A stretch of DNA of 23,612 nucleotides from a virus (IMGVR_UViG_2648501338_000019); one strand, 5' to 3'; numbered from the stretch's first letter, positions 5,627 through 23,612 are shown. Translations and numbers: made by a program. Notes: a model not told the origin generated them from the sequence alone.

Positions 5627-5867
5627 TAAATTGCTTCCTGATTATTATTTCTTCAAAAGAAAGATTCTTATATTCTAAAGATACTTCTTCGTTTTGATGA
5701 TGATTTAATCAAATCTATGAAGGGGGGCTTTAGCCCGACTGAATCCAATCATCTTTCAAGTACAGACCAGTTTTGGACTCTACCAGATCACTCTTTTCAT
5801 AATAACAAGAATTTTCTCTTTATAAATAATATTAGATTGATTCGCTTTCTTTTAGAGGATTTCCACT

Positions 5868-6335: not shown

Positions 6336-6457
6336 GTTAGGTCAACCCTTTGGCATCTTGTCAAGGGGTATTGGCAAAATTTTCAGACTTTTTTATGATT
6401 ATCGCACTTGACAACTTTGAACTGATTTGACCTAGGTTTGTAAAGAGGATGTGAACT

Positions 6458-6610: not shown

Positions 6611-6694
6611 AACTTCTTATAAATAAAATTGTTCCGGTGGTGATGCCGGAACAGGGAGGATTAAATCACTAAACCGTTAAGGGGGATTTTTACT

Positions 6695-8439: not shown

Positions 8440-8526
8440 ACACCCCCCTTAAATCTTAATACCCGTATTTATCAAAATATCAACAATTTAATAAATACCT
8501 TCATATTTCGTAATGAGGGTAATTAC

Positions 8527-10431
8527 ATGAAACTGATTTCTAATAAGGCCAAATTAAAAAAGATTCTTAAAAATATCTCTGCGGCAATTCGCCCACCTAA
8601 AACGATGAAACCTAGCGAATGGGTAGAGGCTAATGTAGTTGCAACCGATGGTGTTAAAGCCGGATCTCTAATTAAGTTGCATCCCTTCCAACGTGGAATG
8701 ATGGACGCGATCACCGAAGATAGGCGAAAAATTGTGCTAAAGTGCTCGGCACAGTTGGGTAAAACTCTTGTGCTAAACGGTATTATCTTTCACAGGATCG
8801 CCAGTAACCCTACTAATATCGGTGTTTTGCAAGCGAACGTTCGAGAATTGAACTCATGGATTGCGGGTAAGGTGAAGCCAGTATTAGAGGCAACCCCAGA
8901 ATTAAAGGCGATGATCACCGACAAATCAGATCGCAATGCCGTTAACAACTCATCGATTATTCAGCTTCGTAACGGATCATTCATGTATTTCATGTCGCTG
9001 AACAGTCCATCACACTTGCGCGGTAAGACACTGCCTTTGATTATTCTGGATGAAGTTGATGCGGCTGATGAGTCAGACGAAGGGAACCCGATCCAGCTAG
9101 CGGAACAACGCGCAACCACTTTCGGTGATGATGCAAGGATCGTAATTGCTTCTACTCCAACTTCGCGGGATGGGGCGATAAACCAACAATGGGAACTCTC
9201 GGATAAAAGAAAATACCACGTCGTTTGCCAGCATTGCGGACACAAACACGTAATGGAATGGAGTAGAGTATTCTTTGATTGGCATGTAATCAATGGTAAA
9301 TCACTGCCGAATCCAGACACAGCCGTTTACCGTTGCCCGTCATGTGAAACTGATTGGTCAGAACCAGATCGCCTCCGTGCTGTTGCTCAGGGAGAATGGG
9401 TCGCCACCGAACCAAATGCGGAAGTAATCGGTTTTCATGCTAACCGCCTTATGTCTCCGTTTAGTTCTATCCGTGCGTGTGTGGTGGACTTTGCTGATAG
9501 CTACGCGAATATGTCACTGGCAACGTTCTATAATGTGGTGCTCGGTGAAACCTTCGATGATCTTAACGAAGACCGCACAGCCGACGAACTGGAAACGCTG
9601 AAAACTGACATTAGCTTAGATAATATTCCTGATGATGTTCTGGCTCTGGTAGGTGGAGTTGACCAGCAAAAAGACCGTCTGGAATCTACCTTGCTGGGTA
9701 TCTCTCGTAAGGGGATATGCGTAGTTGATCACCGATCATTCTATGATGTGAACTGCGAACGCCACGAATCGCCAGCATATGACCAGCTTTACAACTTCCT
9801 GAAAGCTAAATTCTATACCCGATCAGGTCAACGAATCCCGATGCTATCTGCTTTCGTGGACTCATCGAACGGACGAGCTACAAACGTGATCTATCGCTTC
9901 TGCACTAGGTGGCAAAACCTATGCGCCATTAAAGGGGCAAGCAATGTTGATGCTCCAATCCTTCCGGTCAAGGACACAAGAACGGGTGGTTTTACTCTTA
10001 AAATTCTGGGCGTAAACAACCTTAAGACGATGATCCGTGAAATGATTAACCGGAACTTGAGAGACAGCGATCCTCATACGGTCTTCCAGATTGGTGACGT
10101 TCCTGATGACTACTGCGAACAATTGTTATCTGAACAGTTGAAACGGCAGGGTAATACCACACGTTGGGTAAAAGTTGGTCAGCAACGAAACGAGGCTCTC
10201 GACTGCCTGGCTTATTCCTATGCTGCTTCTCGCCATGTACTCAATAAAATGTCATGGGAAAAACTCGAAGCCATCAAAGATAGTTTGAACCGCGAACCAG
10301 AAGAACCCGTAGAAGCTCCTAAATCGCAATCTGACGAGCAAATCGAAGAAAATAAGCCAATCACACGACCACAACGTAAAAACATCGCCAGACGCCCAAA
10401 TAGAGGCCGTAGCTGGGTAACATCGTTCTAA
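8527..10431 (+). CDS. terminase large subunit, lambda GpA family
   Basis: 634 aa; Walker A-like KCSAQLGKT, Walker B-like LIILDEVD, and overall length and layout like lambda gpA (N-terminal ATPase, C-terminal nuclease); strong SD. Confidence 0.9.
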   Translation: MKLISNKAKLKKILKNISAAIRPPKTMKPSEWVEANVVATDGVKAGSLIKLHPFQRGMMDAITEDRRKIVLKCSAQLGKTLVLNGIIFHRIASNPTNIGVLQANVRELNSWIAGKVKPVLEATPELKAMITDKSDRNAVNNSSIIQLRNGSFMYFMSLNSPSHLRGKTLPLIILDEVDAADESDEGNPIQLAEQRATTFGDDARIVIASTPTSRDGAINQQWELSDKRKYHVVCQHCGHKHVMEWSRVFFDWHVINGKSLPNPDTAVYRCPSCETDWSEPDRLRAVAQGEWVATEPNAEVIGFHANRLMSPFSSIRACVVDFADSYANMSLATFYNVVLGETFDDLNEDRTADELETLKTDISLDNIPDDVLALVGGVDQQKDRLESTLLGISRKGICVVDHRSFYDVNCERHESPAYDQLYNFLKAKFYTRSGQRIPMLSAFVDSSNGRATNVIYRFCTRWQNLCAIKGASNVDAPILPVKDTRTGGFTLKILGVNNLKTMIREMINRNLRDSDPHTVFQIGDVPDDYCEQLLSEQLKRQGNTTRWVKVGQQRNEALDCLAYSYAASRHVLNKMSWEKLEAIKDSLNREPEEPVEAPKSQSDEQIEENKPITRPQRKNIARRPNRGRSWVTSF

Positions 10432-10503
10432 TAACTCGCCGTCCTTCGGGGCGGCTTACTCCTAAATATTGTTAATCCAATAACAATTAAATAAGGGGTA
10501 ATT

Positions 10504-10998
10504 ATGAGTTTAGAACTAATTCCCTTAGTAATTCGTAAAGGCGAAAAAGTCACGCTGGCGAATGAAGAGGGTGTAACAATTCAGGTAGGAAATAATAAAG
10601 GTATTATCTATCAGGTTGATGATTCTCCGGCTAATCATGAGATTAAAACCTTAGATTTTGCCGAAGGTAAATATACCATCGTAATAACTTTGGAAGAAGA
10701 ACTGGTATCAATGCAGGAATTAACTGTTTTGCCAGTATTCGCCAAACAATCCAAAAAAGAATATCTGCGGGAAACTATCGCCTTAATCGAGCAAGTTATT
10801 TTCGCCCGTTTATCTGGGGACGAAGCCGCATTATCTCAAATGACAGTGAAAGGGAATACTTTCGCCTATGAGTCATTGGCTGTTCTCCAGCAATTAAAGA
10901 CTGATTATGAACGTCAGTTATCTAAATTAATTCAAGCCGAACGACGTAAACAGGGAATTAGTCCGATTAAAAATATCAAATTACGTCTTACGCGATAA
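10504..10998 (+). CDS. hypothetical head-module protein (164 aa) in the position lambda gpW occupies between terminase and portal
   Basis: Synteny only; conserved TAAGGGGTAAT initiation motif upstream. Confidence 0.45.
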   Translation: MSLELIPLVIRKGEKVTLANEEGVTIQVGNNKGIIYQVDDSPANHEIKTLDFAEGKYTIVITLEEELVSMQELTVLPVFAKQSKKEYLRETIALIEQVIFARLSGDEAALSQMTVKGNTFAYESLAVLQQLKTDYERQLSKLIQAERRKQGISPIKNIKLRLTR

Positions 10999-11008
10999 GG
11001 GGTAAATC

Positions 11009-12520
11009 ATGTTTAATCTTTTTCGACGCAAAAAGGCGGTAGAAACTCCAGTTAAAACTAATCACCGCCAGCAACAACAAAAAATCTTTATCGACAAACA
11101 AGTAGAAAAATTCCAGAAATCTCTGGCTACTCGAAGTTTAGGTCTGGTTGGTGATCGCATTGATGGATCGCTTCAACAAGATACTATCACAGGAACCTTC
11201 AATAAGGCTCTCAAATCGAATGGTAAGCGCCTTTATGATCAGGGTCGTACTCTGGCCTTAAACACCTCCGTAGGCAGTCGCTACACGCAATACATCACCG
11301 ATATGGTGGTAGGTACTGGCCTAGATCCGAAGCCGTCAGTTGTTAAATCAAATGGAAAACTTGATAGCGCACTGAATAAGCAGATCGAGAATGCTTTCTG
11401 GAAGTGGGCGCAGAATGCTAAACGCTTCTCTCGTAACGGTCGCTTTAACTTCCGTGAATTGCTGGTAATGGCTGAACGTGAGCGCGTTATGGGTGGTGAG
11501 TGCTTCATAGTTTTAACCAAAGAAAACAATGAGTTAAATGTTTCTATCCTGTCTGCTGATAAGTGCGACTGGACGCTCAACCGTGAAGTAAGCAAAGAAC
11601 GCGCTATCTATCAGGGGATCGAGTATGACGTAGAAACAATGCGCCCTGTTGCATTTTGGTTTCGTAAAATCAACCTACTGACTCAGACTTACACAGGTGA
11701 TAACTATCGCGTAGATGCTTCGCAAGTATGTCATTATTATCAACCACTTGCGGCTGAATCTCTGCGTGGTGTGACTGACTTCCTGCCAGTGATTAAGGAT
11801 ATCGCACATCAAGACGCATTCCGCGAAGCTGTACTGGTACATAAACGAATTTCAAGTTGTAGCATGGCGTTCATCGAGCGTCCGAAAGATTCTGGTGACG
11901 ATTTTGATACTGGTGAAGATGATGAACAATATCAAGCGCCGGAAGTTATTCACGATTTCGCGCCAGGTACTATTCAGGAATTACCGGAAGGGGCAACGAT
12001 CAAGAGTATTCAATCCACGCAAAGCGGCGATGACTTTAACAGCTTCAATGATGGAATGTTCACGAGTATAGCGATGGGTCTTGGCGTGTTCAATCAGGGC
12101 TTAACTGGCGATACTAGCCAAATAAATTACAGCGCCGCACGCTACGGCGAATTACTTCAAAGAACGCGCGTTAAAGCACTGCAAAACAAATTGATTGAAA
12201 CAGTGGTATTGCCAATTTTTGAAGCATATCTACGCCATTATTCTGCGCGTGGTATTGTTCCGATTCGTATTACTGCAATTCCGCATATTATCGAGAACAC
12301 TACTATTATTCGTCCTCGTTTTGAATCCGTCGATCCATTTAAAGACGTAAGCGCCGAGATTGCTTTAATTGATAACGGACTTAAATCACGTACTGCCGTT
12401 ATATTAGAACGTGGTGATGATCCTGAAAAAGTATTCTCAGAGATTCAAGCCGAAAAGAGCGCACTAAATATTATCGTTGATGGTGAGAGCAAGGATAACC
12501 CTTCTCAAACCGATCCCTAA
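11009..12520 (+). CDS. portal protein, lambda gpB-like
   Basis: 503 aa directly after the terminase; segments such as FNSFNDGMFTSIAMGLGVFNQGL resemble the lambda gpB core; acidic C-terminal tail. Confidence 0.85.
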   Translation: MFNLFRRKKAVETPVKTNHRQQQQKIFIDKQVEKFQKSLATRSLGLVGDRIDGSLQQDTITGTFNKALKSNGKRLYDQGRTLALNTSVGSRYTQYITDMVVGTGLDPKPSVVKSNGKLDSALNKQIENAFWKWAQNAKRFSRNGRFNFRELLVMAERERVMGGECFIVLTKENNELNVSILSADKCDWTLNREVSKERAIYQGIEYDVETMRPVAFWFRKINLLTQTYTGDNYRVDASQVCHYYQPLAAESLRGVTDFLPVIKDIAHQDAFREAVLVHKRISSCSMAFIERPKDSGDDFDTGEDDEQYQAPEVIHDFAPGTIQELPEGATIKSIQSTQSGDDFNSFNDGMFTSIAMGLGVFNQGLTGDTSQINYSAARYGELLQRTRVKALQNKLIETVVLPIFEAYLRHYSARGIVPIRITAIPHIIENTTIIRPRFESVDPFKDVSAEIALIDNGLKSRTAVILERGDDPEKVFSEIQAEKSALNIIVDGESKDNPSQTDP

Positions 12521-12565
12521 TAACCAACGGGGGCGCAATGCCCCCAATTAATTAAAGGTGATTAA

Positions 12566-14572
12566 ATGCTTAAATTTCGCCGCGATCTTAACGGTTACGG
12601 TGGAGTTATTAACGAAGGGCAGAATGATCAATACGAATTTGAAATTGCTTTCTCCAGTGAACAGCCTTATCAGCGCCAATTCTGGGATGAGCAAAATCAA
12701 GAAATGGTGGTATTAGATGAAATTCTGGTACATACACCGGAAGCGGTTGATCTGTCTCGTCTGAATAATAACGCTCCGTTGCTGTTCAATCATAATTTCG
12801 ATAATCATATTGGTGTCGTTTGTAACGCTCGAATCGATGCGGATAACGTAGGTCGTGCTCTGGTTAAATTCTCTAAGCATGGCACTTTGGCTAATGATAT
12901 TCGTAATAAAGTCATTGAAGGTACGATGGAAAAAATTTCTGTCGGTTATGACATTAAAGAATATCACATCGACTACACCAAAGGACAATTGATTGTTACT
13001 AAATGGATTCCTCACGAGGTTTCATGGGTGTCTGTTCCCGCAGACGACACCGTGGGTCTGAATCGCTCTCTAAATACTATCACAGTTAATTTGGAGGCTA
13101 AACGCGATATGACTAAAGAACAAATCGAAGAAATCAAAGAAGAACAAGAACCCGCTCAGGTTGAAGAAACTCCGGTAGAAGAAAATAAAGAACCGGAAGT
13201 AGAAGAAACTCAAGAGCGCCAAGTTGAAGAGAATAAAGAAGATGAAAATCTCGAAGACGGAAAAGACGCTAAACATCCTGAAAGTGTTGATGATGATAGT
13301 TCAACTGTTCGGGAAACAGAAGAAGTAAAAGAAGAACGTGAAGCCGCTCCGGTTGAAGAAGAAAAAATCGAAGAAGTGGCTGAACGTTCCGAAGAAGACG
13401 AAGAAGAAATCCGAGCAATCGCTCGTGAGTTAAATATTAACGACGAAGAATTAGAACGCGCATTGGCAGTTAAAGATATGACGCCGGAAGCATTCCGCAC
13501 TAAGGCACTAAATAACATTACCAATGCTCAACGTAATAACGAACAAATTAATAAGGAACAAATCATGGAAAAAACTTTCGATCTTAATAACGTAATCCGC
13601 TCCCTGGTAGATGGCGACGTGCTCGGCGCTAACGAAGCTGAATATTCCGCTATGGCTGCTGGTGCTGCAATGCAGCGTGGTCGTGCTGCTCGCGGTGGCT
13701 CTGTATTCGTTCCGGCTGCTGCTCTGCGTGCTGCTTCCGAAGGTAACACCAAAGCTACTCTGACCGCTGTAACCGACGAAAAACTGCTGACCGAATCCTA
13801 TGTAGAAATGCTGCTTCCACAGTCTGTTCTGGGTCGTCTGGGTGTGACTGTTCTGTCTGGTCTGAATAGCCCGATTGCAGTACCAAAAATGACTGCTTCC
13901 AGCGTCGAAGCCTTTGGTTTTGTTGATGAAAATGGAAGTGCCCCCGAATCGAAGGCTAGCTTTGAAAACGTGAAAATGGCTCCGAAAACTTTTGCTGGTG
14001 GCAACCCGATCAGCCGTCAGTCTCTGAAAACTGTTCCGAATATTGCTACCCTGATCACTGATCACATTAACAAATCTGTTCGGATCAAACTGGAACAACT
14101 GATTCTGTCTGACAAAGACAACGAGCGCGGTCCGAAAGGTCTGGTTAAGCAACTGGTAGACGGTGGTCGCGTTACTAAGAAAGCCGCTTTTAGCTACAAA
14201 GACTTCCTGAAAGAAATTGCAGCACTGACCGACGCTGGCGTTCCGGCACAGTCCATCAAGTTTGCAATGAGCGGTGCAACTGCTGCTGAACTGGAATCTA
14301 CCCTGAAAGATAACGGCGTTTCCGGTTATATCATCGAAAACGGCAAACTGGCTGGTTACGATGTAGTTACTTCTGGCGTTATTCCGGCAGACCACATCGT
14401 TCTGGGTGACTTCTCCGGTATCATGATCGGTGAATGGGGTGGTCTGGAACTGGATATGGACGACACCACTTACCGCGCACAGTCTGCTATCGTTCCGCGT
14501 ATCTGGGTAGACCTGGACTTCACCGTAGTTCAGCCGGAAGCTCTGAAAGTTCTTCACATCTCCGCTGAATGA
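12566..14572 (+). CDS. prohead protease - acidic scaffold-like linker - HK97-fold major capsid protein fusion (668 aa); TGA stop
   Basis: N-terminal region resembles HK97-family prohead protease, the middle about 130 aa is E/K-rich (scaffold/delta-like), the C-terminal about 330 aa resembles HK97-type major capsid proteins; lies between portal and neck genes. Confidence 0.8.
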   Translation: MLKFRRDLNGYGGVINEGQNDQYEFEIAFSSEQPYQRQFWDEQNQEMVVLDEILVHTPEAVDLSRLNNNAPLLFNHNFDNHIGVVCNARIDADNVGRALVKFSKHGTLANDIRNKVIEGTMEKISVGYDIKEYHIDYTKGQLIVTKWIPHEVSWVSVPADDTVGLNRSLNTITVNLEAKRDMTKEQIEEIKEEQEPAQVEETPVEENKEPEVEETQERQVEENKEDENLEDGKDAKHPESVDDDSSTVRETEEVKEEREAAPVEEEKIEEVAERSEEDEEEIRAIARELNINDEELERALAVKDMTPEAFRTKALNNITNAQRNNEQINKEQIMEKTFDLNNVIRSLVDGDVLGANEAEYSAMAAGAAMQRGRAARGGSVFVPAAALRAASEGNTKATLTAVTDEKLLTESYVEMLLPQSVLGRLGVTVLSGLNSPIAVPKMTASSVEAFGFVDENGSAPESKASFENVKMAPKTFAGGNPISRQSLKTVPNIATLITDHINKSVRIKLEQLILSDKDNERGPKGLVKQLVDGGRVTKKAAFSYKDFLKEIAALTDAGVPAQSIKFAMSGATAAELESTLKDNGVSGYIIENGKLAGYDVVTSGVIPADHIVLGDFSGIMIGEWGGLELDMDDTTYRAQSAIVPRIWVDLDFTVVQPEALKVLHISAE

Positions 14573-14701
14573 ACTAACGTAGAACCATCTGAACCTTCCC
14601 CCGATTTGGGGGAAGAAAATCTGATTCCATCTCAGGAAGAAGAATCTCAGACGGTTACGGCGAAAGCCACAGTTAAAAAACAACGTAAAACTAAAGAATA
14701 A
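14573..14701 (+). CDS. in-frame 42-codon extension after the capsid gene TGA (TNVEPSEPSPDLGEENLIPSQEEESQTVTAKATVKKQRKTKE, then TAA TAA); candidate readthrough product
   Basis: Frame checked codon by codon; no start codon with an SD inside; homologous to the extension after the major tail gene. Confidence 0.4.
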   Translation, partial: TNVEPSEPSPDLGEENLIPSQEEESQTVTAKATVKKQRKTKE

Positions 14702-14706
14702 TAATT

Positions 14707-14734
14707 AGCCCTGCCTAACGGTGGGGCTTTTTTG
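14707..14734 (+). terminator. rho-independent terminator (AGCCCTGCC-TAAC-GGTGGGGCT + T6)
   Basis: 9-bp stem with two G-U pairs followed by TTTTTTG; near-identical copy after the major tail gene. Confidence 0.8.
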
Positions 14735-14763
14735 TATGTAAATACTCCATAAAGGGGGTAACT

Positions 14764-15054
14764 ATGTTCAAATTATCAGAATCACAATTAAATCGAATGT
14801 TTAAAAGTGCTCCTGTATTTTCGGTGGAAGGTGGTAAATCAATTCGTGCTTACCATGAAATTACTACTACCGACGAATCAGGTGTAATGACAGAAACCGA
14901 ATTTCTATTCTGTCGTGAGGGAGACTTAAAGCAAGGTGATATTGTCACAGTAGAAAACCAGCGTTTCAAAGTTCAATACGTTAAGCGCAATGGTGACAAT
15001 ACTTGTGATTGCTTTATCACTTTAGCAGGGGGTACACATGCTCGCTACCGTTAA
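14764..15054 (+). CDS. putative head-tail adaptor / head completion protein (96 aa)
   Basis: Size and position immediately after the capsid gene; conserved AAAGGGGGTAAC initiation motif. Confidence 0.45.
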   Translation: MFKLSESQLNRMFKSAPVFSVEGGKSIRAYHEITTTDESGVMTETEFLFCREGDLKQGDIVTVENQRFKVQYVKRNGDNTCDCFITLAGGTHARYR

Positions 15055-15460
15055 TAATATGCCGAGACTGAAAATCAAACGCGCCTTGCAAGATATTATC
15101 GAACAAGATTTAGGTCTGGCTTTAAACGTAGAACAAACTCAGCAAGGCTTTAGTGATGACGTGGTTTGTTGGATTACTGGCATGAATGAAACTTATACGC
15201 GTGTTCGTGGTGGTAATGCAATGCAAGCTGAATGCGTTATCGAAATGCAATTATATTCTCAGATTCATGAAACAAAAATCCATGAGGGTATTTGCCAGAT
15301 AATCCAGATTCAGCCGGATAACCCACGATTTAAAGATTTGGGCTTCTCTATTTCAGATATCACTCCAGTAGCTTCTAATACCGATTATGACGATGATTCT
15401 AGTGATGGGGGTATCGTTGGGACACTTAGCCTTAAATTTTCTTATCTAGCGCGTTTTTAA
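15038..15460 (+). CDS. putative neck / tail completion protein (140 aa); overlaps the upstream gene by 17 nt
   Basis: Synteny; SD AGGGGG 6 nt upstream of the ATG; overlap suggests translational coupling. Confidence 0.45.
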   Translation: MLATVNNMPRLKIKRALQDIIEQDLGLALNVEQTQQGFSDDVVCWITGMNETYTRVRGGNAMQAECVIEMQLYSQIHETKIHEGICQIIQIQPDNPRFKDLGFSISDITPVASNTDYDDDSSDGGIVGTLSLKFSYLARF

Positions 15461-15469
15461 GGGGTAATA

Positions 15470-16303
15470 ATGAATATTACACAAGATAACTTAGATATTT
15501 TCACTGGATCACATGTTGAAGTGTCGATCTCTAACCAGATAGACAATCAGGTCGACTTTTTCGATCCTAGCTTTAGTTCTATGGAGAACATCGCAGCATT
15601 CCCTACGCTAACCGAATCCACAGAGATAGAAACTCTGGAAGAGTACGATCAGGACGCTACGGGGAAACTTGCTGGTTATCGTAGACTGGAACCGACAACA
15701 CTCACATTAAACCGTGTTCTTGACGATGAACATCAAGCAATGTTGATGAAAGCGGTAGAGGATAAAACACCTTTACGCTTCCGTATGTTCTATGTTGTGA
15801 ACTCTGGCTATAGTGCTGCTAACACAGGGTACTTTTGTATATTCGATGCTTACGTCACATCACATAAAACCCGTGGTAGTGATAACAAAGCTGTAACACT
15901 GGAATTTAAACTTGAACCAGATGGCGGGATTTTGGCAAGGGGTATTGCTACCGAAGGCCGGATCTTACGTCAGGGTGATTTTGGTTTGGGTGCTGGTGTA
16001 AATCCATTCACGGGTCCGATTGACAGCGAGGCATTAGCCGGAAACCGTTTCGTAACTTACAAGGGAACTGCTAGCGGTAATCCATATTCAACCGACACAG
16101 CATTAATTCACCTTCAAGCTAATGAGCATGGCGCATGGCAATTAACCTGTAATACTTCTGGCGCACCGCGTTTACGTGTCCGAAATATTCAGGAAAACGG
16201 TCGTTCTGAATGGATCAAGGTATATTCCACCAATGAGAAACCGACACCTAGCGAAATTGGCGCAGTGGCTAAGACTGACCGGATCGATTTCGGCGAATAC
16301 TAA
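15470..16303 (+). CDS. hypothetical structural protein (277 aa), candidate collar or fibre-anchoring protein; C-terminus shares the KPTPxE(I/L)G motif with the fibre
   Basis: Located between neck genes and the fibre gene; C-terminal NEKPTPSEIGAVAKTD parallels GDKPTPTELGVYSKAEVD and KKPTPEQLSQGEIA in the fibre. Confidence 0.5.
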   Translation: MNITQDNLDIFTGSHVEVSISNQIDNQVDFFDPSFSSMENIAAFPTLTESTEIETLEEYDQDATGKLAGYRRLEPTTLTLNRVLDDEHQAMLMKAVEDKTPLRFRMFYVVNSGYSAANTGYFCIFDAYVTSHKTRGSDNKAVTLEFKLEPDGGILARGIATEGRILRQGDFGLGAGVNPFTGPIDSEALAGNRFVTYKGTASGNPYSTDTALIHLQANEHGAWQLTCNTSGAPRLRVRNIQENGRSEWIKVYSTNEKPTPSEIGAVAKTDRIDFGEY

Positions 16304-16335
16304 GGATTCTCCTACCTAAATAAAACATGAACGTT

Positions 16336-16368
16336 GGGAGGTTAACGCCTCCCTTATTCCTGTTTTAT
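16336..16368 (+). terminator. stem-loop GGGAGG-TTAACG-CCTCCC followed by a T-rich tract; candidate terminator/attenuator before the fibre gene
   Basis: Perfect 6-bp stem; the downstream TTATTCCTGTTTTA is only moderately U-rich. Confidence 0.4.
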
Positions 16369-16384
16369 AGTGAGGTGATTCTAG

Positions 16385-19300
16385 ATGCAATCAATCCAAT
16401 TTAAACGCACACAGACGGCGGGTAAAAAACCAACGCCGGAACAATTATCACAGGGTGAAATCGCCTTACAGTTGGCGGATCATGTGATTTACACCAAAGA
16501 CAAAAATAATAACGTAGTCCAAATTAGTGTTTCTCCAGAAAAACACGCTGAACTGAATACGAAAGTAGACAATAACAAAACTAGCACTGACCGTGTTATT
16601 GCTTCCAACAAACAAGAAGCCGCTAATAATCTGGCTAGTGCTAAAGCTGAACTGAATCAGACTATCACTTCTACCCGTGATGCTCTCAATGCTTCAATCA
16701 CTGCTGGCGACACCGCAGCCAACAAACGAATTGATGCTTTGACTACCACAGTAGGTAACAATAAAACCGAAGCGGCTAACGCTCTGGCGGCTGCTAAGAC
16801 TGAACTGAATCAGACTATTACTTCAACCCGCGATACTATCAACGCAACAATTAACAAGAACAAGACAGATATTAATGCACGAGTTGATCAGACTAATACC
16901 AACGTTACTAACTTAACGAATACTGTCTCAGCAAATAAATCAGCCATAGAAACGACCGTAGCAAATAATAAACGCGATGCCGACACGAAGATCACCAATC
17001 TTACGGGGACAGTTAATAGCAACCATACAGCAATTAACAACAAGGTAGACCAGAATAAATCTTCTACTGATGCCGCAATTGCCGCAGCTAACCAGCGAAT
17101 TGATTCTATTGAAGGTAGTGCCGATGCTGCTTACATCAAGAAGAATACCAACACTTACCATCACGGCTATCTGTTAACCAAAACAGCTAACTATTTTGAT
17201 GATGCTGGTGCTCGTAACCTTGATTATTTTGGTGCATTCCGTCCAAACAATGCCGAAGGTTGGGGTAACTTAATCCTTAACATTCCTCATTCTGGCGGTA
17301 AAGCACACGGTCGCGGTTTTGAGTTCCACTATGGGTCTAGCTCATCTCAAGTTAAAACCTATGGCTTTGATAAAGATGGTAATAAGCGATTCAGCTACCG
17401 CATGTATCACGAAGGTGATAAGCCGACTCCGACTGAATTGGGTGTGTATAGTAAAGCCGAAGTTGATCAGATGTTCATCAAGAACGTTAGAATGACCGTT
17501 CCTTCTGGTGATGCTACTCGTGGATACTTCAAGATCGCAACCGCTACGATCCCACAGAATGGTCGAATGGTAATGCTTCGTATCTTCGGTGGTAATGGTT
17601 ATAACGTTAACTCTTATGATCAGGTTGACTTTGTAGAAATTGTCATCCGTTCCGGTAACAATAACCCGAAAGGCGTTAGTATTGCTGCTTATCGTCGAAA
17701 TGCTCTGAACGTTCATCAAGTATTTGCGGTTAATACTTCCGGTGATAACTACGATATCTACGTTAACTACGGTCGTTACACCGATAACGTTATTGTCGAA
17801 TACGGTAAAACTGATGGCGTTACTCTGACAGTACATGATGTTCCTGAATTAACTCTCGTTAAACCTTCTGTTGGTGTTACCGATGCTCGTGTTATTACGA
17901 TGTTCAACACCGAAAACAAAGCCGGAACGTTGATGTTTGATAATAACTCACAAGCAACCTATGATATTGTGAGCCTTAATAACGTACCAGACAACAATAA
18001 AAAATATATGCGTAAATTCCGCAGTCGTGCGGCGGAAACAATATGGCATGAAACTGTTCAAGGTGATGTGTATCGTTTGGCTACTGGTTCCACCGACCAA
18101 AAAGAAGTATTAAAAATTGTTGGTAGTGATGGTTTATTTGTCGATAGACTTCATCTGCAAGGCAATAACGCGATTCGTATGTGGCGTCCTACTGGTCGTA
18201 GTAACTATTTTGAATATATGGATCAGCGAGACGGGGCTAATAAACGTCAAGGCTGGTTTGGTTTTGGTTCTACAGATACTAACGATTTTCAATGGTATAG
18301 TGACGAAGGTAAAAACTTTGTTAAATTAGAAGCAAGTGGTCAAGTATCTTTAAGCACAGGTGCTACCAAAATTGTATACACCAATGGTCAATATGTAGCT
18401 GCTAACAGTGATGCATTCCGTATGATTTACGGTAACTATGGTGCATTCTGGCGTAATGATGGTCAAAACGTATATCTTCTGTCTACTGCCGAAAATGATA
18501 AATTTGGTGGTTGGAACGGCTATCGTCCATTCATTTACAATCTGGGTAGCGGTAATGTTACTTTGGGTGGTGATGGTAACGAAGGTGCATTAGTCTTAGA
18601 ACGTGCAAGTCGTGCTGCTCGTTTTGCTGGAAACACATACATTAAAGGCCAATATTTAACATTTGATGCTGGTGCTGGACAATCCCGCGACTATTTCCGT
18701 TTGAGTCATTGGGGCGATAGCAATAACGCTCGTGATAACGTTATACAGCTTGAAGATAGTAAAGGTGCTCACTTCACCACTGAACGTACTTTAGCAACTG
18801 GTGCGATTAAAACTAAATTCTTCGGTGATTTGGAATCTGCTGGTCTGATTCGCTGGGGTAAGGGTACAGCTACTTCTAGTTTCAATATTCGTGCATGGGG
18901 CGCTGATGCTCGTAAACAAGTATTTGAATGTGCTGATGAAAGCGGTTGGCATTGGTATACCCAACGTCCGGGCGGTCCGGGTACTACGGCAATTGAGTTT
19001 GCCATCAACGGTACTGTTAAGCCTCAAGCAATTCACACTGGCGGTAATATCACGCTTAACGGTGCTGATATTGAATTTAAGCGCACTGGTAATAAGCATT
19101 TGTGGTTTAGAGATCCGAATGGCTTAGAACTAGGTTTGATGTATTCCGATGATGCTGGTGTTATTCGCTTCCGTGGTCAGAAACAAGCCCAGACGTGGAA
19201 ACTTGCGGATAAGATGATCCAGTTGGAATCTGGTACTGTAACCGGTGGCGGTAATGGCCTGATTCGTGGTGAAGTTGCTGGCGGTAGTTGGGCTAGCTGG

Positions 19301-19885
19301 CGTGACCGTGCTGCTGGTCTTATGGTTGGGTGTCCTCAATCCACCAACTCGGCACATAACGTATGGAAAGCGACGCATTGGGGTAAATATCACATTGCAG
19401 CAATGGGTGTGCACGTTCCTGACGGTACTATCGGTAACGCTCTTGTTCGTCTCCATGTTCATGATACTAACTTTGACTTTAACGCTGCTGGTGACTTTAC
19501 CGCAGGTCGTAACGGTTCGTTTAACGATGTTTACATTCGCTCTGACTCCCGTTTGAAGATTAACAAGGAAGAATTACAGGACGGCGCATTAGAGAAAGTA
19601 AACTCACTGAAAGTCTACACCTACGATAAAGTTAAATCTCTTAAAGACCGTAGTGTGATTAAACGCGAAGTAGGTATTATTGCTCAGGATCTGGAAGAAG
19701 TATTGCCGGAAGCAGTAGGTATTCAATCCACCGAAGATCCAGAAAATCCAGAAGCAATCAAGACTATTTCTAACTCTGCTGTCAATGCTTTAATCATCAA
19801 AGCTATGCAGGAAATGGACGCCAAATATAAAGCCCAGATCGAAGCATTACAGAAAGAAATTGCCGAACTGAAAGCAACTAAATAA
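16385..19885 (+). CDS. long fibre protein (1166 aa) with a tandemly duplicated N-terminal rod segment and a C-terminal intramolecular chaperone (peptidase S74-like) domain
   Basis: C-terminus RSDSRLKINKEEL...VYTYDKVK...GIIAQDLEEVLPEAV matches the autoproteolytic chaperone domain of phage fibres and tailspikes; N/T/S-rich beta-type sequence in the middle. Confidence 0.85.
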   Translation: MQSIQFKRTQTAGKKPTPEQLSQGEIALQLADHVIYTKDKNNNVVQISVSPEKHAELNTKVDNNKTSTDRVIASNKQEAANNLASAKAELNQTITSTRDALNASITAGDTAANKRIDALTTTVGNNKTEAANALAAAKTELNQTITSTRDTINATINKNKTDINARVDQTNTNVTNLTNTVSANKSAIETTVANNKRDADTKITNLTGTVNSNHTAINNKVDQNKSSTDAAIAAANQRIDSIEGSADAAYIKKNTNTYHHGYLLTKTANYFDDAGARNLDYFGAFRPNNAEGWGNLILNIPHSGGKAHGRGFEFHYGSSSSQVKTYGFDKDGNKRFSYRMYHEGDKPTPTELGVYSKAEVDQMFIKNVRMTVPSGDATRGYFKIATATIPQNGRMVMLRIFGGNGYNVNSYDQVDFVEIVIRSGNNNPKGVSIAAYRRNALNVHQVFAVNTSGDNYDIYVNYGRYTDNVIVEYGKTDGVTLTVHDVPELTLVKPSVGVTDARVITMFNTENKAGTLMFDNNSQATYDIVSLNNVPDNNKKYMRKFRSRAAETIWHETVQGDVYRLATGSTDQKEVLKIVGSDGLFVDRLHLQGNNAIRMWRPTGRSNYFEYMDQRDGANKRQGWFGFGSTDTNDFQWYSDEGKNFVKLEASGQVSLSTGATKIVYTNGQYVAANSDAFRMIYGNYGAFWRNDGQNVYLLSTAENDKFGGWNGYRPFIYNLGSGNVTLGGDGNEGALVLERASRAARFAGNTYIKGQYLTFDAGAGQSRDYFRLSHWGDSNNARDNVIQLEDSKGAHFTTERTLATGAIKTKFFGDLESAGLIRWGKGTATSSFNIRAWGADARKQVFECADESGWHWYTQRPGGPGTTAIEFAINGTVKPQAIHTGGNITLNGADIEFKRTGNKHLWFRDPNGLELGLMYSDDAGVIRFRGQKQAQTWKLADKMIQLESGTVTGGGNGLIRGEVAGGSWASWRDRAAGLMVGCPQSTNSAHNVWKATHWGKYHIAAMGVHVPDGTIGNALVRLHVHDTNFDFNAAGDFTAGRNGSFNDVYIRSDSRLKINKEELQDGALEKVNSLKVYTYDKVKSLKDRSVIKREVGIIAQDLEEVLPEAVGIQSTEDPENPEAIKTISNSAVNALIIKAMQEMDAKYKAQIEALQKEIAELKATK

Positions 19886-19941
19886 TAAAAGTCGGGGGAC
19901 TAGTTCCCCCGTAATAACAATTTTAATTAAGGGGTAATTCT

Positions 19942-20415
19942 ATGTCTCAGCAATTCAAAGATATTTTTACTGGTGGTCTGGTAAGTCTGTTCTATCACGC
20001 GGACACCACTAATACCGCTCTCGACCACGAAAGCTACGAAGAAATTAAAGAGTGTGCTGGTTTTCCTGAAACTGGTATCGAGCGCGGTACTGTAGAAGTT
20101 AAATCCTTCTCTTCTCAGTATAACCGTAAACTGGTAGGGAAGCTGAACGTTCCTGATCTGACTCTGACCGTTAACTACATCCCAGGCGATGCGGTACATG
20201 AAAAACTGATCAAAGCTGCCGAAGACGGTACTCGTATTCAGATTAAAGTAGAATATTACGTTGACGCAGCAAAACAGACTGGTATTCGCACCGCTTTCAA
20301 CGGCTTCATTTCTAAAGTTGCTATGAACGGTGGCGATGAAGAAGTTGTAACCAAAGAGTTTACCTTCGCGGTGGATGGTGCTCCGCTGAAACAGCAAATC
20401 TTCACTGCCGGATGA
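19942..20415 (+). CDS. major tail (tube) protein (157 aa); TGA stop
   Basis: Size, composition and position immediately upstream of the chaperone and tape-measure genes; conserved TTAAGGGGTAAT initiation motif. Confidence 0.7.
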   Translation: MSQQFKDIFTGGLVSLFYHADTTNTALDHESYEEIKECAGFPETGIERGTVEVKSFSSQYNRKLVGKLNVPDLTLTVNYIPGDAVHEKLIKAAEDGTRIQIKVEYYVDAAKQTGIRTAFNGFISKVAMNGGDEEVVTKEFTFAVDGAPLKQQIFTAG

Positions 20416-20535
20416 ACTAACGAAGAACTTCCCGAACCGGAACCACAGCCGGAACATGAAGCGGTGGTGATTCCAGAAGTAGAAGAAGTTACGGCGAAAG
20501 CCACAGCTAAACGAAGCCGCAAGGCTAAAGATTAA
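20416..20535 (+). CDS. in-frame 39-codon extension after the major tail gene TGA (TNEELPEPEPQPEHEAVVIPEVEEVTAKATAKRSRKAKD, then TAA); candidate readthrough product
   Basis: Frame checked codon by codon; shares the opening TGA ACT AAC G and the closing VTAKAT-x-K...RK-x-K motif with the capsid extension. Confidence 0.4.
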   Translation, partial: TNEELPEPEPQPEHEAVVIPEVEEVTAKATAKRSRKAKD

Positions 20536-20540
20536 TTATA

Positions 20541-20570
20541 AGCCCTGCCTTAATGGTGGGGCTTTTTTAT
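20541..20570 (+). terminator. rho-independent terminator (AGCCCTGCC-TTAAT-GGTGGGGCT + T6), homolog of the one at 14707
   Basis: Same stem sequence as the capsid terminator; loop differs by one inserted base. Confidence 0.8.
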
Positions 20571-20583
20571 TGGAGTAATCAAA

Positions 20584-21090
20584 ATGGCGAATGTCGTTAA
20601 TAAGCCTGGCTGGGTCGGGTCATCTGCTGTTTCTGTAACTGGTCAACGATGGATGAGCGCAGCAATGAACGCATTAAAGGTTAGTCGCCCAGCTAACATG
20701 AGTGCGATGTGTGGTCGTGGTATGGATACGGTTGTAGCTACTGCTGCGTGGTCTACTTCATTGGGTAATAACTGGGGTGTAACTGCTTCAAACTATCCAG
20801 TAACTGACATGCGCGGTAAAGGATCTATGGAGAACCCCGAAAACGTGGGCGTAGGGCGTCTGATTGGCGTTATCGTTGGTCAATTCAATGGCGGTACTCC
20901 TACTATGGCTGTATATCTCCAGAACGGTAGAGCGGGGAATATAACCGTTAATTTGGGTGGTGCTGCTGTCACTGTTCCTTATAACAGTATGCAAAGCGGT
21001 TTTCATTACTATTGGTTAAGCAATCCTCCGGCTGCTTTACTCAATAACATTAAGAAGACTGGCACTAAGCAGACTTTGAAAATCTCTTAA
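20584..21090 (+). CDS. hypothetical protein (168 aa), G/S/T/N-rich beta-type; likely minor structural protein or moron between the tail tube and chaperone genes
   Basis: ORF with SD GGAG; no family recognised. Confidence 0.45.
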   Translation: MANVVNKPGWVGSSAVSVTGQRWMSAAMNALKVSRPANMSAMCGRGMDTVVATAAWSTSLGNNWGVTASNYPVTDMRGKGSMENPENVGVGRLIGVIVGQFNGGTPTMAVYLQNGRAGNITVNLGGAAVTVPYNSMQSGFHYYWLSNPPAALLNNIKKTGTKQTLKIS

Positions 21091-21135
21091 ATTCTAAATA
21101 AATACAGCGTAATCACTATTAATGAGGAAACAATA

Positions 21136-21444
21136 ATGAATCTGAATGAAATGCTGAAAGCTCTTTCTCCGAAACGTGAATCTTTAACCCTCGGAGGATT
21201 TACGTTCTATGCTCGCCCTATGTCGGTACAAGAATTTAATGAACATGTTTTCAATACTGATAAAAAAGACCGTGATGAACGCTCTATTCTTCGTTGTATT
21301 GAAGATGAAGACGGTAAGCCAGTATTTGAATCTATTGAACAAGTTAAGGCATTGTATACTAGCGTCCGCAGCGAATTAATCGGCTTAGTTGCTCAAGCAT
21401 CATTGATGAAAGATGCGGCGGTAATTGAAAACGAGGTAAAGTAA
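21136..21444 (+). CDS. tail assembly chaperone (lambda gpG-like position)
   Basis: 102-aa ORF directly upstream of the tape measure gene, with an overlapping ORF in the -1 frame, which is the canonical G/GT arrangement. Confidence 0.6.
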   Translation: MNLNEMLKALSPKRESLTLGGFTFYARPMSVQEFNEHVFNTDKKDRDERSILRCIEDEDGKPVFESIEQVKALYTSVRSELIGLVAQASLMKDAAVIENEVK

Positions 21445-21452
21445 ACCCGCTC

Positions 21453-21827
21453 TTGAATTTTTATTTTCGGCAAATGATGCGTCGGGGCTTGAGTAAAGAT
21501 GAGATGGATAATATGCCAATTACGCTATTTTGGGCGTTGCATATATTCGATACATATCTTGAACCACAAAGCCCCCTGTTTCAAGATGCGCGACATGCAC
21601 AGTCGATGTATTACATGCACGTTACATCTCCTAACATGACTCGTGAATGGTTGAATAAAATCAATGTTAACCAATTCCGAATGATTAAGGACGACAAGCA
21701 ATTTAAAACGCAAGAAGAAATAAAAGAAATTGCTCGTAAGAAAGAGGAAGAACGTAACGCTGCTTTGGTTGATAGTTTTTTCGACGCTTCATTATTACAA
21801 AAGCTCAAGAGCGGACAATTGGGGTAA
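21453..21827 (+). CDS. T-like ORF in the -1 frame relative to the chaperone gene; probably expressed only as a G-T fusion via programmed -1 frameshift
   Basis: The -1 frame opens at 21429, 16 nt before the G stop; the track's start at 21453 is a TTG with no SD; ends 3 nt before the tape measure ATG. Confidence 0.5.
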   Translation: MNFYFRQMMRRGLSKDEMDNMPITLFWALHIFDTYLEPQSPLFQDARHAQSMYYMHVTSPNMTREWLNKINVNQFRMIKDDKQFKTQEEIKEIARKKEEERNAALVDSFFDASLLQKLKSGQLG

Positions 21828-21830
21828 TTT

Positions 21831-23612
21831 ATGACAAGACATATAGTAACAATAGAAGGAGATAATGACGGTCTAAGGAGAAGTACCAATCAGGCGATAG
21901 AGATGCTTGATAACCTTTCAGAAAGGGCAATGAATCTTGATTTGTCTGGTGGTTTATCTAGTTTAAGTGGAACCCTTCGCGGAACTGGTGGATCGCTTGC
22001 TTTGGCTGCTGGTGGTTTTGTTGGTTTGGCTGCTGGCGCTATTTCTGCTGCAAATGCCATCGGTGATTATGTAAAGGAATACAGCGAAGTTTCAAAAGCA
22101 ACTGGTTTAACCGTCGAAACACTCCAGAAATTAGAGAAGCAATTCTCCGGTACTGGCTTAACCGTTGAGAAATTTGGTGATATTAACAAAGACACCTTAG
22201 ATAAGCTGGCTGATGCATGGCGTAACGGTGGCGGTATTGAAGACGACCTAGAAAGTGTAGGTTTGAAGATTAAAGATTATGCCGAGTTTATGAACGATCC
22301 ACAAGGCGGGATGAAAGCGGCGATCAAGGTCTTCTATGATATGCGCAAGGCTGGTGCGTCTATCGCTGATGTTAAGTTTATGATGGAATCGTTAGCCAGT
22401 GATTCAAGTCATATGGCTGATGAATTGCAGAAATACGGATCTTATCAGGAAGCTGTAAACGCCATTAATCAGCAAACTGTTAAAATCACCAATGACACAG
22501 CCGAAGAATATAATAAATTCTCTAAAAATATGGATACCCTTACCGATAACTTAAAGGGTATGGCTGCAAATGCACTAAATCCAGTTGTTGAAGGGATGAA
22601 TAATCTTTACAACTGGTTTGATAAAGATTGGGAAAAGACCGCTTTATTCAACGCATTAAAGACTTTTAATGAAAGGTTTGAAAAAGCTCGCCAGAATATG
22701 GCTATGGCTAACGGTGGTTTTATTAACAAGCATGGTTATAGTTCTACTGGTCTAGCGGGTGGACAAGCCAGCTTCAACAATAAACCAAATTATCCTGATC
22801 GTTGGGTGGATAGTGAAGGCGTTACCCGTGATAAAAACGGTGATCCGGTAATTACTATCACTGGAAATAAATCGGATACCGGATTTACCCCAACGGGTCA
22901 AGGTGGAGGCGTCACCGGACCATCGAAAAAAGAACAAGAAGAAGCCAAGAAGAAAGCGGAAGAGGCAGCTAAAAAGGCTAAGGAAGCCGCAGAAAAAGCA
23001 CAGAAAGCACGCGAGGATGCAATCAAGCGACTGAATGCTCTTGATGTTAAATTGCAAGGACAGACAGCCGCGTCTATTGCTTCTCAAAACAAGCAGTTAG
23101 AAGCCAGCTTGAAAGATTTAGACACTGCTTTAGATATGGGCTTAATCTCTCAGCAAGACGCAGCCGCTAAACGTCAGCAACTGTTAGATCAGAACGCAGA
23201 AAACATCTATAAAATGATGTTGGGTGCTGATCCGATTGATGCTCTGAATGCCTTAACAGTTTTGCAACAAATCAGGGACAACGAGCTAGAAAGCCATAAA
23301 CGGTTACTTGATGGTAAAGCTATCTCCTACGAAGAATATATGCGTCGTGTGAATGATACCGAGCAAAACTATTCTCAGATTGATAGTCAGTTACAGGGAA
23401 TGGATGGTTTTAAAACCAATCAATTGACTAATAGCTTAGACTATCAGGATTCAAATAACCCGTTTGCTAAATTTAATGCAATCGATCAAGAGAAATCGGA
23501 AGCTGAACAAGATTATGTGAACCGCCCCGGGTTTCCTGGAGAGTGTTTTATCTGTGAACTCAGGCTGCCAGATCATCGTTTCCGATGGAAGCATAATAAG
23601 CTTTTTCTGCTT
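21831..23612 (+). CDS. tail tape measure protein, 5' portion (open to the end of the window)
   Basis: Open frame of 594 codons with no stop; N-terminal glycine/alanine-rich hydrophobic segment (GGSLALAAGGFVGLAAGAISAANAIG) and a lysine/glutamate-rich coiled coil (KKEQEEAKKKAEEAAKKAKEAAEKAQKARE); canonical position after G/GT. Confidence 0.75.
   Translation, partial: MTRHIVTIEGDNDGLRRSTNQAIEMLDNLSERAMNLDLSGGLSSLSGTLRGTGGSLALAAGGFVGLAAGAISAANAIGDYVKEYSEVSKATGLTVETLQKLEKQFSGTGLTVEKFGDINKDTLDKLADAWRNGGGIEDDLESVGLKIKDYAEFMNDPQGGMKAAIKVFYDMRKAGASIADVKFMMESLASDSSHMADELQKYGSYQEAVNAINQQTVKITNDTAEEYNKFSKNMDTLTDNLKGMAANALNPVVEGMNNLYNWFDKDWEKTALFNALKTFNERFEKARQNMAMANGGFINKHGYSSTGLAGGQASFNNKPNYPDRWVDSEGVTRDKNGDPVITITGNKSDTGFTPTGQGGGVTGPSKKEQEEAKKKAEEAAKKAKEAAEKAQKAREDAIKRLNALDVKLQGQTAASIASQNKQLEASLKDLDTALDMGLISQQDAAAKRQQLLDQNAENIYKMMLGADPIDALNALTVLQQIRDNELESHKRLLDGKAISYEEYMRRVNDTEQNYSQIDSQLQGMDGFKTNQLTNSLDYQDSNNPFAKFNAIDQEKSEAEQDYVNRPGFPGECFICELRLPDHRFRWKHNKLFLL

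Follow-up and report, generated by a model that had tools for sequence, protein, structure and literature searches.

A G-run motif before the late genes of an Escherichia coli prophage, probably a lineage-specific spelling of the Shine-Dalgarno site

In polycistronic operons, termination-reinitiation junctions place the upstream stop codon in or beside the next ribosome-binding site. In phage T4, RegB switches translation from early to late genes through cleavage of GG*AGRAYARAA within the ribosome-binding sites of early genes (PMC3014915). In Staphylococcus aureus, extended Shine-Dalgarno usage is reported, with initiation sites conserved beyond the 4-5-nt core (PMC13009471). We compared with these systems a G-rich motif found before late genes in a stretch of viral DNA of 23,612 nt (IMGVR_UViG_2648501338_000019), referred to as a whole as the window. 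The motif is probably a lineage-specific spelling, or ‘dialect’, of the ordinary Shine-Dalgarno site in the late operon of a 34-kb temperate, siphovirus-like E. coli prophage.

The late motif resembles the canonical and extended Shine-Dalgarno site (UAAGGAGGUGAUC) in position, spacing and complementarity to 16S nucleotides 1534-1542, and its place is taken by GAGGUGA or GGAGGU in orthologous genes; position, complementarity and replaceability are as expected of a Shine-Dalgarno site. It differs in two ways: 14 of 22 late genes have G for the central A, with a G.U wobble or one-base bulge, and the spacer is almost invariantly UAA(U). Like the RegB targets and RegA operators of T4 (PMC3014915), the motif is a class-biased sequence, longer than the core, at phage ribosome-binding sites. 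However, neither motif of this prophage holds the RegB consensus (a GGAG/U core plus RAYARAA), as the late sites lack GGAG and the early GAGGAT is followed by T-rich sequence, and the two motifs are not conserved at orthologues. The S. aureus usage is reportedly a host-wide trait tied to the host ribosome, whereas the present spelling belongs to one prophage clade and is absent from the host genes sampled.

The late starts named in the initial annotation exist, being RefSeq-annotated starts in close relatives, and a G-rich motif lies just 5' of all seven on the plus strand. These are the sites of the large terminase TerL (TGAGGGTAAT, 8514-8523, ATG 8527; no GGGG), a 164-aa head-tail joining-like gene (TAAGGGGTAAT, 10492-10502, ATG 10504), the portal gene (TAAGGGGTAAA, 10996-11006, ATG 11009), a 96-aa gene (AAAGGGGGTAAC, 14751-14762, ATG 14764; -12.1 kcal/mol), a 277-aa tail-protein-like gene (TAAGGGGTAAT, 15458-15468, ATG 15470), the tail tube gene (TAAGGGGTAAT, 19928-19938, ATG 19942) and the tape measure gene (TTGGGGTAAT, 21819-21828, ATG 21831). 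A 140-aa gene, missing from the earlier list, has a further plus-strand site (AGGGGGTAC, 15027-15035, ATG 15038). The repeated late motif is borne out in part: its consensus is looser than claimed, with AAGGGGTAAT exact only at 10493-10502, 15459-15468 and 19929-19938, and the reported spacing of 3-6 nt was off, as 1-3 nt separate the last base of the motif from the ATG, with the last G 5-7 nt away in each of the eight G-rich late sites. Four late genes on the same strand have sites without a G-run, namely the protease-capsid gene (AAAGGTGATT, 12554-12563, ATG 12566), whose site pairs with 16S GAUCACCU (-10.8 kcal/mol), the tail fibre gene (GAGGTGATT, a canonical extended Shine-Dalgarno site at 16372-16380, ATG 16385; -14.0 kcal/mol), the gp38-like adhesin gene (GGAGTAAT, 20572-20579, ATG 20584) and the tail assembly chaperone gene, whose site is of the ‘early’ type (GAGGAAA, 21124-21130, ATG 21136).

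The plus strand of positions 8440-23612 contains nine copies of GGGGTAA, against 0.92 +/- 0.96 expected from 300 dinucleotide shuffles, and six of the nine lie within the 14 positions that make up the slot before 12 late starts (binomial P = 1.5e-10). G-runs in the ribosome-binding slot are followed by TAA in six of seven cases, those elsewhere in 3 of 26 (P = 5e-4). In a scan of the complete prophage L007 (34,385 bp), 9 of 11 plus-strand GGGGT[AG]A sat in the ribosome-binding slot before a late gene, as did neither of the two on its minus strand. A run of at least four G forms the site of 14 of 22 late genes of the E. coli clade and of 4 of 60 control genes (P = 3e-7), the controls being 29 flanking host genes (0/29) and 31 genes of another E. 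coli prophage (4/31).

We checked that the annotated 16S rRNA ends in the tail GGAUCACCUCCUUA-3' in all 5426 E. coli genomes. The duplex of UAAGGGGU with the tail ACC(U)CCUUA-3' has 8 bp, a single bulge or G.U wobble and an energy of about -8.5 kcal/mol. Against GAUCACCUCCUUA, RNAduplex gives -8.3 to -8.6 kcal/mol for (U)UAAGGGGUA, -9.3 for GGGGGU and -10.2 for GGAGGU; G-run sites overall range from -6.1 to -12.1 kcal/mol. The ribosome would bind at the motif, with the G-run standing in for GGAGG or GAGG: GGGGGU would pair with 16S CCUCC plus A1534 through a central G.U wobble, and in the 8-bp duplex of UAAGGGGU it is U1537 that would bulge. The AA(T) at the 3' end is unpaired with 16S in the minimum-energy duplex, and TGAT would pair better than TAAT; as this AA(T) is over-represented, 16S complementarity leaves some of the 11 positions unexplained. 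The AA(T) is probably an A/U-rich spacer, resembling the GAU of a perfect GGUGAU and dispensable for pairing.

The 5' UAA of the motif is complementary to the last three 16S bases and at some junctions serves also as the upstream stop codon. The TAA at 10996-10998 terminates the 164-aa gene and forms the first three bases of TAAGGGG at the portal site, that at 15458-15460 likewise terminates the 140-aa gene and forms the first three bases of TAAGGGG at the 277-aa gene site, and the TAA at 21825-21827, within the tape measure site and 3 nt from its ATG, closes ORF 21453-21827. The initial annotation had counted two such overlaps rather than three, and its suggestion of a ‘dual signal’ holds in the limited sense that the TAA of the motif is an upstream stop at these sites. 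Because the UAA there doubles as a stop, a terminating ribosome would be released atop the next ribosome-binding site, as in termination-reinitiation coupling. Coupling is no general explanation of the motif, since only three of the eight G-rich sites are so arranged; at 8527, 10504, 14764 and 19942 the previous stop is 56-190 nt away.

We compared orthologues from relatives with about 60% portal identity. In the Salmonella and Providencia relatives and the more distant L044 and phage DCP80, late orthologues carry GAGGTGA, GGAGGT or GAGGAA in the same place, and GAGGTT or AGGGTGA also occur at orthologous genes in the first three. The initial annotation had linked its proposal to conservation of the motif in relatives; these late orthologues have canonical sites, and TAAGGGGTAA is kept in all relatives only at the 164-aa gene (the instance at 10504). 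TerL orthologues keep GAGGGTAAT in Salmonella only, portal orthologues in Salmonella and Providencia have TAAGAGGTGAGAA, those of the 96-aa gene AGGAGGAAT or AGGAGGGTAT, those of the 277-aa gene GCGAGGTTCTA, those of the tube AAAGGGTGATAAT and those of the tape measure AAGAGGTGAAT. The 140-aa gene of Providencia has AGGAGGTAC in an otherwise identical context, a single A/G swap (AGGAGGTACAC there, AGGGGGTACAC here). A second tube allele, present at 13 E. coli-clade loci, has AGAAGGAAAA, and the tape measure 5' flank varies among relatives (AAAGGGG, AACGGGG, ATTGGGG), with AAGAGGTCAAT in L010. Variants within the clade are neutral or tend toward better 16S pairing (TAAT to TGAT, TACAC to TGCAC, and G- or A-run length).

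On the left arm, plus-strand sites read GGAGGAT before the small-terminase-like gene (TerS, phrog_57; 1689-1695, ATG 1701), GAGGAT before a 33-codon ORF (2344-2349, ATG 2356), a 57-aa ORF (2500-2505, ATG 2511), a 155-aa gene (5855-5860, ATG 5868) and a 50-aa gene (6445-6450, ATG 6458), and AAGGGGGAT before a Rha/anti-repressor-like gene (6679-6687, ATG 6695). The GAGGAT that had been assigned to six early genes is indeed present 7-9 nt before the first five of these starts, but 6695 has GGGGGAT, a hybrid of a G-run core and the ‘early’ AT. Of the supposed early genes, 1701 encodes a small-terminase-like protein with no early function, and 2356 and 2511 are small ORFs unannotated in relatives, RefSeq omitting both in a 99.9% identical strain. 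All six left-arm genes have A directly after the GG core, where 11 of 12 late genes have T (P = 4e-4), and left-arm plus-strand sites are spaced 7-9 nt from the start versus 5-7 nt for late sites (P = 0.004). The difference between two classes of ribosome-binding site is therefore statistically real, but it is a tendency that leaks both ways: TerS, a packaging gene, has an ‘early-type’ site, the four late genes described above lack a G-run, and G-runs occur outside the late operon at 6695 and before a 201-aa gene on the minus strand (AAGGGGGGTGT, 8440-8450, ATG at 8439; -14.3 kcal/mol). The motif of the 201-aa gene is spelled AAGGGGGGT, and its Salmonella orthologues have AGGAGGTTGT or AAGGAGGTGTGA. 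Given the G-runs at these two genes, the dialect is a property of the clade rather than strictly of one class of genes.

The two spellings, GGGGTAAT late and GAGGAT early, might instead be recognised by a factor acting in trans, an RNA-binding protein or endoribonuclease, which moves translation on from early to late messages, with A-free G-run sites immune to RegB-like cutting. The class tendency, the extension of both motifs past the base-pairing core and the precedents of RegB and RegA in T4 (PMC3014915) speak for such a switch. Most left-arm proteins have no recognisable function, so that a factor could hide among them. However, the motif is lost at orthologous genes, the classes overlap, and the second tube allele works with its own sequence at all its loci. 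The early motif also drifts among close relatives, the site at 6458 becoming GGGGAT, AAGGAT or GAGGGT. Searches of 20 window proteins against Pfam and PHROGs found no RegB or RegA homologue and no other recognisable RNA-targeting protein, the right end of the prophage, outside the window, being judged by RefSeq product names only. Predicted 16S pairing energies of the two classes are alike (-8.3 vs -8.9 kcal/mol, P = 0.5). These results speak against the class-specific translational control that had been proposed; the late motif is neither limited to one temporal class nor conserved in diverged relatives. We therefore consider it very unlikely that a clade-specific factor, from an unannotated left-arm gene or the host, reads the G-run against GAGGAU and times or protects late translation. 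Such a factor would be a temperate-phage analogue of T4 RegB/RegA and would make the shift from GGAGG to GGGGG an adaptation to it, and only if the spelling is read by a specific factor would the motif have greater importance. With a trans-acting reader of the exact sequence, TAAGGGGTAAT and TAAGGAGGTGAT at equal spacing would differ in induced lysogens only.

Local structure offers another reading, in which the motif is the 3' arm of hairpins and an upstream anti-Shine-Dalgarno mimic (TTACTCCT, TACCTTCAT or TACTCC) masks the site, GUAA having been selected to pair with the UUAC of the mRNA itself for structure-based control of late translation. Predicted hairpins do mask the sites of TerL (in the 3' arm of 8496-8521), the 164-aa gene (10456-10501, where the site pairs with TTACTCCT at 10456-10463) and the 96-aa gene, and the sites of TerL, the 164-aa gene and one gene further downstream are more paired than those of at least 99% of shuffles. 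In Salmonella and Providencia the stems are retained, their C/U changes being one-sided and opposite G; the TerL hairpin of Salmonella relatives keeps its stem while its loop changes. However, across all 21 late genes of a complete prophage the mean unpaired probability is 0.31 versus 0.30 in shuffles (Wilcoxon P = 0.84), and the pairing partner is absent at 15470, 19942 and 21831, which makes this reading improbable. That GGGGTAAT doubles as an element of internal late promoters, its TAAT being the last four bases of TATAAT and hence -10-like, is hardly credible: the 1-3 nt between motif and ATG are too few for a leader that has a ribosome-binding site of its own, and a sigma-70 scan returned 30 sites versus 41 in shuffles, none on the plus strand at a motif.

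Read as a Shine-Dalgarno dialect, the motif is of value mainly for annotation, in that a prophage clade can own a tight ribosome-binding-site spelling that is rare in the sampled host genes. The G-run could help in calling gene starts and in spotting imported modules, which have ordinary sites. A small natural set of A/G swaps, each in surroundings that are otherwise identical, offers a test of how wobble and bulged Shine-Dalgarno duplexes perform.

The convergence on one spelling may result partly from short-patch copying of initiation cassettes inside the genome and partly from an unexplained clade-wide A-to-G preference in the core; at 42% G+C, neutral drift would be expected to favour A, so that a directional force still lacks an explanation. 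The identity of the sites could also be wholly historical, an ancestral cassette of the 164-aa gene having been copied to other junctions by short-patch recombination or gene conversion where any adequate ribosome-binding site would have served. The 164-aa site alone is common to all lineages, and the modules that L009 and L010 have imported come with ordinary sites. The sites at 10504 and 19942 share 27 nt (score 38 versus a null maximum of 28), a common cassette that points to copying of this pair. Apart from the pair, however, likeness between sites stops at an 11-12-mer, downstream late genes have varied G-run forms (GGGGGC, GGGGGTG, GGGGTGAAT) and no single cassette, and the direction of change cannot be set without an outgroup. 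We regard this historical account as possible but doubtful. Other regulatory cassettes appear to have been copied, as the capsid and tube genes have in common a 175-nt 3' repeat and twin terminators. Separately, conserved in-frame UGA extensions are seen in the capsid gene as well as the tail-tube gene.

The window holds the left two thirds of an E. coli prophage of ~34 kb and ~42% G+C, and is identical to the IMG/VR contig UViG_2648501730_000022. Of 5426 complete E. coli genomes, 55 contain a relative that is 90-95% identical, inserted in hicB or ycdX and with a serine recombinase at its far end. In this lineage the prophage splits the antitoxin gene hicB and leaves the adjoining hicA intact (window 1-351; related loci considered, L001, L007, L009 and L010); in other strains ycdX is split instead, indicating two attachment sites among closely related serine-recombinase prophages.

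The late operon runs on the plus strand from a gpA-type large terminase gene (TerL, start 8527) through a 164-aa head-tail joining-like gene (ATG 10504), a lambda-type portal, a protease-capsid fusion, small head/tail genes, a tail fibre (16385-19885) whose distal part is RB49 gp37-like, the tail tube (ATG 19942), a gp38-like adhesin (20584-21090), a tail assembly chaperone (phrog_344, 21136-21444) and then the tape measure. Approximately 2.5 kb of the fibre gene shares 79-82% DNA identity with gp37 (distal long tail fibre) of RB49-like myoviruses, and with the gp38-like adhesin it makes up a T-even host-range module in a siphovirus-like prophage, between head and tail-tube genes. The left arm contains mainly genes of unknown function, plus a Rha/anti-repressor-like gene and a small-terminase-like gene (TerS, 1701-2255; phrog_57, E = 6e-11). 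The latter lies at the far left end, separated from TerL by 6 kb that include oppositely oriented genes, and its orthologue in a Salmonella relative has a faint Nu1 match.

The G-rich motif preceding late genes is real and strongly non-random. GGGGTAA occurs nine times on the plus strand of the late region (0.92 expected), and six of the nine fall within a 14-position slot 5' of 12 late starts (P = 1.5e-10). A G-run followed by TAA accounts for 6/7 cases in the ribosome-binding slot versus 3/26 elsewhere. The initial annotation placed an extended motif at seven late starts (8527, 10504, 11009, 14764, 15470, 19942 and 21831), all of which match annotation in relatives and have a G-rich element just 5', but the exact consensus AAGGGGTAAT was found only three times; the four remaining sites read GAGGGTAAT, GGGGTAAA, GGGGGTAAC and TTGGGGTAAT. 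The spacing is 5-7 nt when counted from the last G to the ATG, rather than the 3-6 nt first proposed for the end of the motif, and a TAA of the motif doubles as the upstream stop codon at three junctions (10996, 15458 and 21825), one more than previously noted.

Everything measurable about the motif fits a Shine-Dalgarno site. The 3' end of E. coli 16S rRNA is GGAUCACCUCCUUA-3', and RNAduplex predicts that (U)UAAGGGGUA pairs with CACC(U)CCUUA over 8 bp with one U bulged (-8.3 to -8.6 kcal/mol), the trailing AA(T) of the motif being unpaired in the best predicted duplex. With this predicted pairing, the motif's 5' TAA complements the three 3'-terminal bases of the rRNA, as happens in the textbook perfect site, UAAGGAGG. 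As TAA is also a stop codon, it could play a double role at gene junctions. The central G has a small cost, given the RNAduplex energies of GGGGGU (-9.3 kcal/mol) and GGAGGU (-10.2 kcal/mol).

Late and left-arm sites differ in tendency. The base 3' of the GG core is T in 11/12 late genes and A in 6/6 left-arm genes on the plus strand (P = 4e-4), and the difference is smaller when all 12 left-arm genes are included (T in 4/12; P = 0.009). Spacing to the ATG is 5-7 nt in late genes versus 7-9 nt in the left arm (P = 0.004), and the GGT/GGA tendency is also seen in Salmonella and Providencia relatives. The proposal of two distinct site classes holds to this extent, but the boundaries leak. The TerS gene has GGAGGAT, and the minus-strand gene at 8439 has AAGGGGGGT (GGAGGT in Salmonella orthologues). 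Four late genes are exceptions (GGTGATT, GAGGTGATT, GGAGTAAT and GAGGAAA). Late sites are not predicted to be stronger than early ones, as mean predicted duplex energies are -8.9 and -8.3 kcal/mol, respectively (P = 0.5).

Five of the six starts reported to carry the early element GAGGAT do so, 7-9 nt before the ATG, but the Rha-like gene (6695) has GGGGGAT. Among the named 'early genes', 1701 belongs to DNA packaging and two are small ORFs that lack annotation. The two ORFs, 2356-2457 (33 codons) and 2511-2684 (57 codons), have good GAGGAT-N7/8-ATG initiation regions and lie in a region left unannotated by RefSeq in a 99.9% identical strain. Read post hoc, the left-arm plus-strand genes 5868, 6458 and 6695 and their orthologues (L001 and L003-L005) have (A)CT directly before the ATG in common, and two of them start with ATGAATACT, suggesting that the early initiation region is also conserved beyond GAGGAT.

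A search of genome contigs with a portal alignment returned no relative; relatives were recovered instead from contigs encoding homologous proteins and from IMG/VR. The comparison set comprised Salmonella (L004-L006) and Providencia (L003) prophages and one from an IMG/VR contig (L044), all at 57-64% portal identity, together with phage DCP80 (L011), the nearest cultured phage by TerL (44% identity). Ordinary sites occupy the same place in orthologues of the genes for the portal (TAAGAGGTGAGAA), the 277-aa protein (GCGAGGTTCTA), the tube (AAAGGGTGATAAT), the tape measure (AAGAGGTGAAT) and the 96-aa protein (AGGAGGAAT). The 140-aa gene differs by one A/G swap (Providencia cAGGAGGTACAC, window cAGGGGGTACAC), and DCP80 has ordinary ribosome-binding sites. 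Such lack of conservation in relatives is an outcome that the initial annotation itself named as refuting its reading. The 164-aa gene is the only one at which TAAGGGGTAA(T/C) is kept in all lineages. In ~40 loci of the E. coli clade, motifs and flanks alike are nearly invariant; this conservation is uninformative because whole -25 to -1 regions are near-invariant at ~92% overall identity. Rare variants in this clade include TAAT to TGAT, TACAC to TGCAC and run-length changes, and a tube allele with AGAAGGAAAA is present in 13 loci. The early GAGGAT of a 50-aa gene varies to GGGGAT, AAGGAT, GAGGGT and TGGAAT among close relatives. Modules of other phages imported into the loci L009 and L010 have ordinary sites.

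The G-run excess is not predicted by drift in an A+T-rich genome. In L007, a complete prophage of the E. coli clade, a G-run of at least four precedes 14/22 late genes, compared with 0/29 flanking host genes and 4/31 genes of a same-species lambdoid prophage (P = 3e-7), and 9 of 11 plus-strand GGGGT[AG]A sit in late ribosome-binding slots. Copying may be part of the explanation: the leaders of 10504 and 19942 have 27 nt in common, and other duplicated regulatory cassettes are present in the genome. Evasion of CsrA (GGA motif), RNase E sites and restriction-site avoidance were considered and set aside; GAGG is not avoided genome-wide.

Late sites might alternatively be masked by hairpins in which upstream sequence resembling the rRNA tail (TTACTCCT or TACCTTCAT) pairs with the ribosome-binding site. 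Folding predicts such hairpins, with partial conservation, at TerL and the 164-aa gene. Over 21 late genes, however, predicted pairing of the sites is no greater than in shuffles (mean unpaired probability 0.31 versus 0.30, P = 0.84), and general masking was rejected; predicted masking is limited to three genes. The masking hairpins would form at 8496-8521 for TerL (TACCTTCAT / ATGAGGGTA) and at 10456-10501 for the 164-aa gene (TTACTCCT / AGGGGTAA). For both sites, predicted pairing exceeds that in at least 99% of shuffles, and Salmonella and Providencia retain the stems, with different loops and C/U substitutions facing G. G+C-rich intergenic hairpins lacking T-tracts were also identified at 12528-12546 (portal/capsid), 16336-16353 (277-aa gene/fibre; 3' arm GCCTCCC, like the anti-Shine-Dalgarno sequence) and 19893-19911 (fibre/tube).

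A promoter reading was rejected, as a sigma-70 scan gave no enrichment and no promoter-like site at the motifs, and an Rfam search of the window returned no family. The closest known class-specific extended motif at ribosome-binding sites is the target of T4 RegB, which cuts GG*AGRAYARAA within early ribosome-binding sites (PMC3014915). Neither window motif matches it, and no RegB/RegA-like protein was found among the window proteins. The best reading of the motif is an ordinary ribosome-binding site in a spelling particular to this clade, overlapping a stop codon in some cases. The class-specific translational control initially suggested is not supported, given that the site is not kept in relatives, the classes overlap and the energies are alike; we consider such control by the motif very improbable.

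More unusual than the motif itself are UGA extensions of the capsid and tail-tube genes. Both genes stop at TGA-A (context GAA/GGA-TGA-ACT-AAC-G), followed by a conserved in-frame open extension of 43 codons in the capsid gene (14570-14701, ending in VTAKATVKKQRKTKE) and 39 codons in the tube gene (20413-20532, ending in VTAKATAKRSRKAKD). The extensions are acidic and E- and P-rich with a basic tail at the end. They are present in ~39/43 loci for the capsid (25-45 codons) and 22/37 for the tube (36-41 codons), the stop in these related loci always being TGA-A, and they remain open despite in-frame indels and sequence variation (more than 20 variants). The Providencia capsid gene also has a UGA extension; in the Salmonella relatives, and in a second tube allele, the stop is TAA and no extension follows. 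From sequence, this looks like candidate programmed UGA readthrough. The outcome would resemble what Listeria phages PSA, A118 and A500 achieve by frameshifting, namely extended capsid and tail proteins (PMC5009743); our literature search turned up no description of such readthrough. A direct repeat of ~175 nt (14559-14733 and 20402-20567, 76% identical) spans both gene ends, the extensions and a pair of almost identical intrinsic terminators (14707-14728 and 20540-20564), each consisting of AGCCCTGCCT(T)AA(C/T)GGTGGGGCT and a T-run.

The ORF at 21453-21827 lies 3' of the chaperone gene (21136-21444) in the -1 frame and lacks both an ATG and a ribosome-binding site. A -1 shift is possible only within 21429-21444, where A_AAG (21438-21441) is directly 5' of the TAA stop and GAGG is at 21433-21436; the pair is probably a frameshift of the lambda G/GT type. 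Finally, a gene-free stretch of ~1.3 kb (4579-5867) separates divergent left-arm genes, and the Salmonella and Providencia relatives have such a stretch at the same location. Within it are seven CCTACAC copies (AACCTACACTA-like iterons) at 5134-5252, absent from the rest of the window, as well as strong promoter-like sites in divergent orientation around 4833-4936; the stretch probably serves as an origin or operator.
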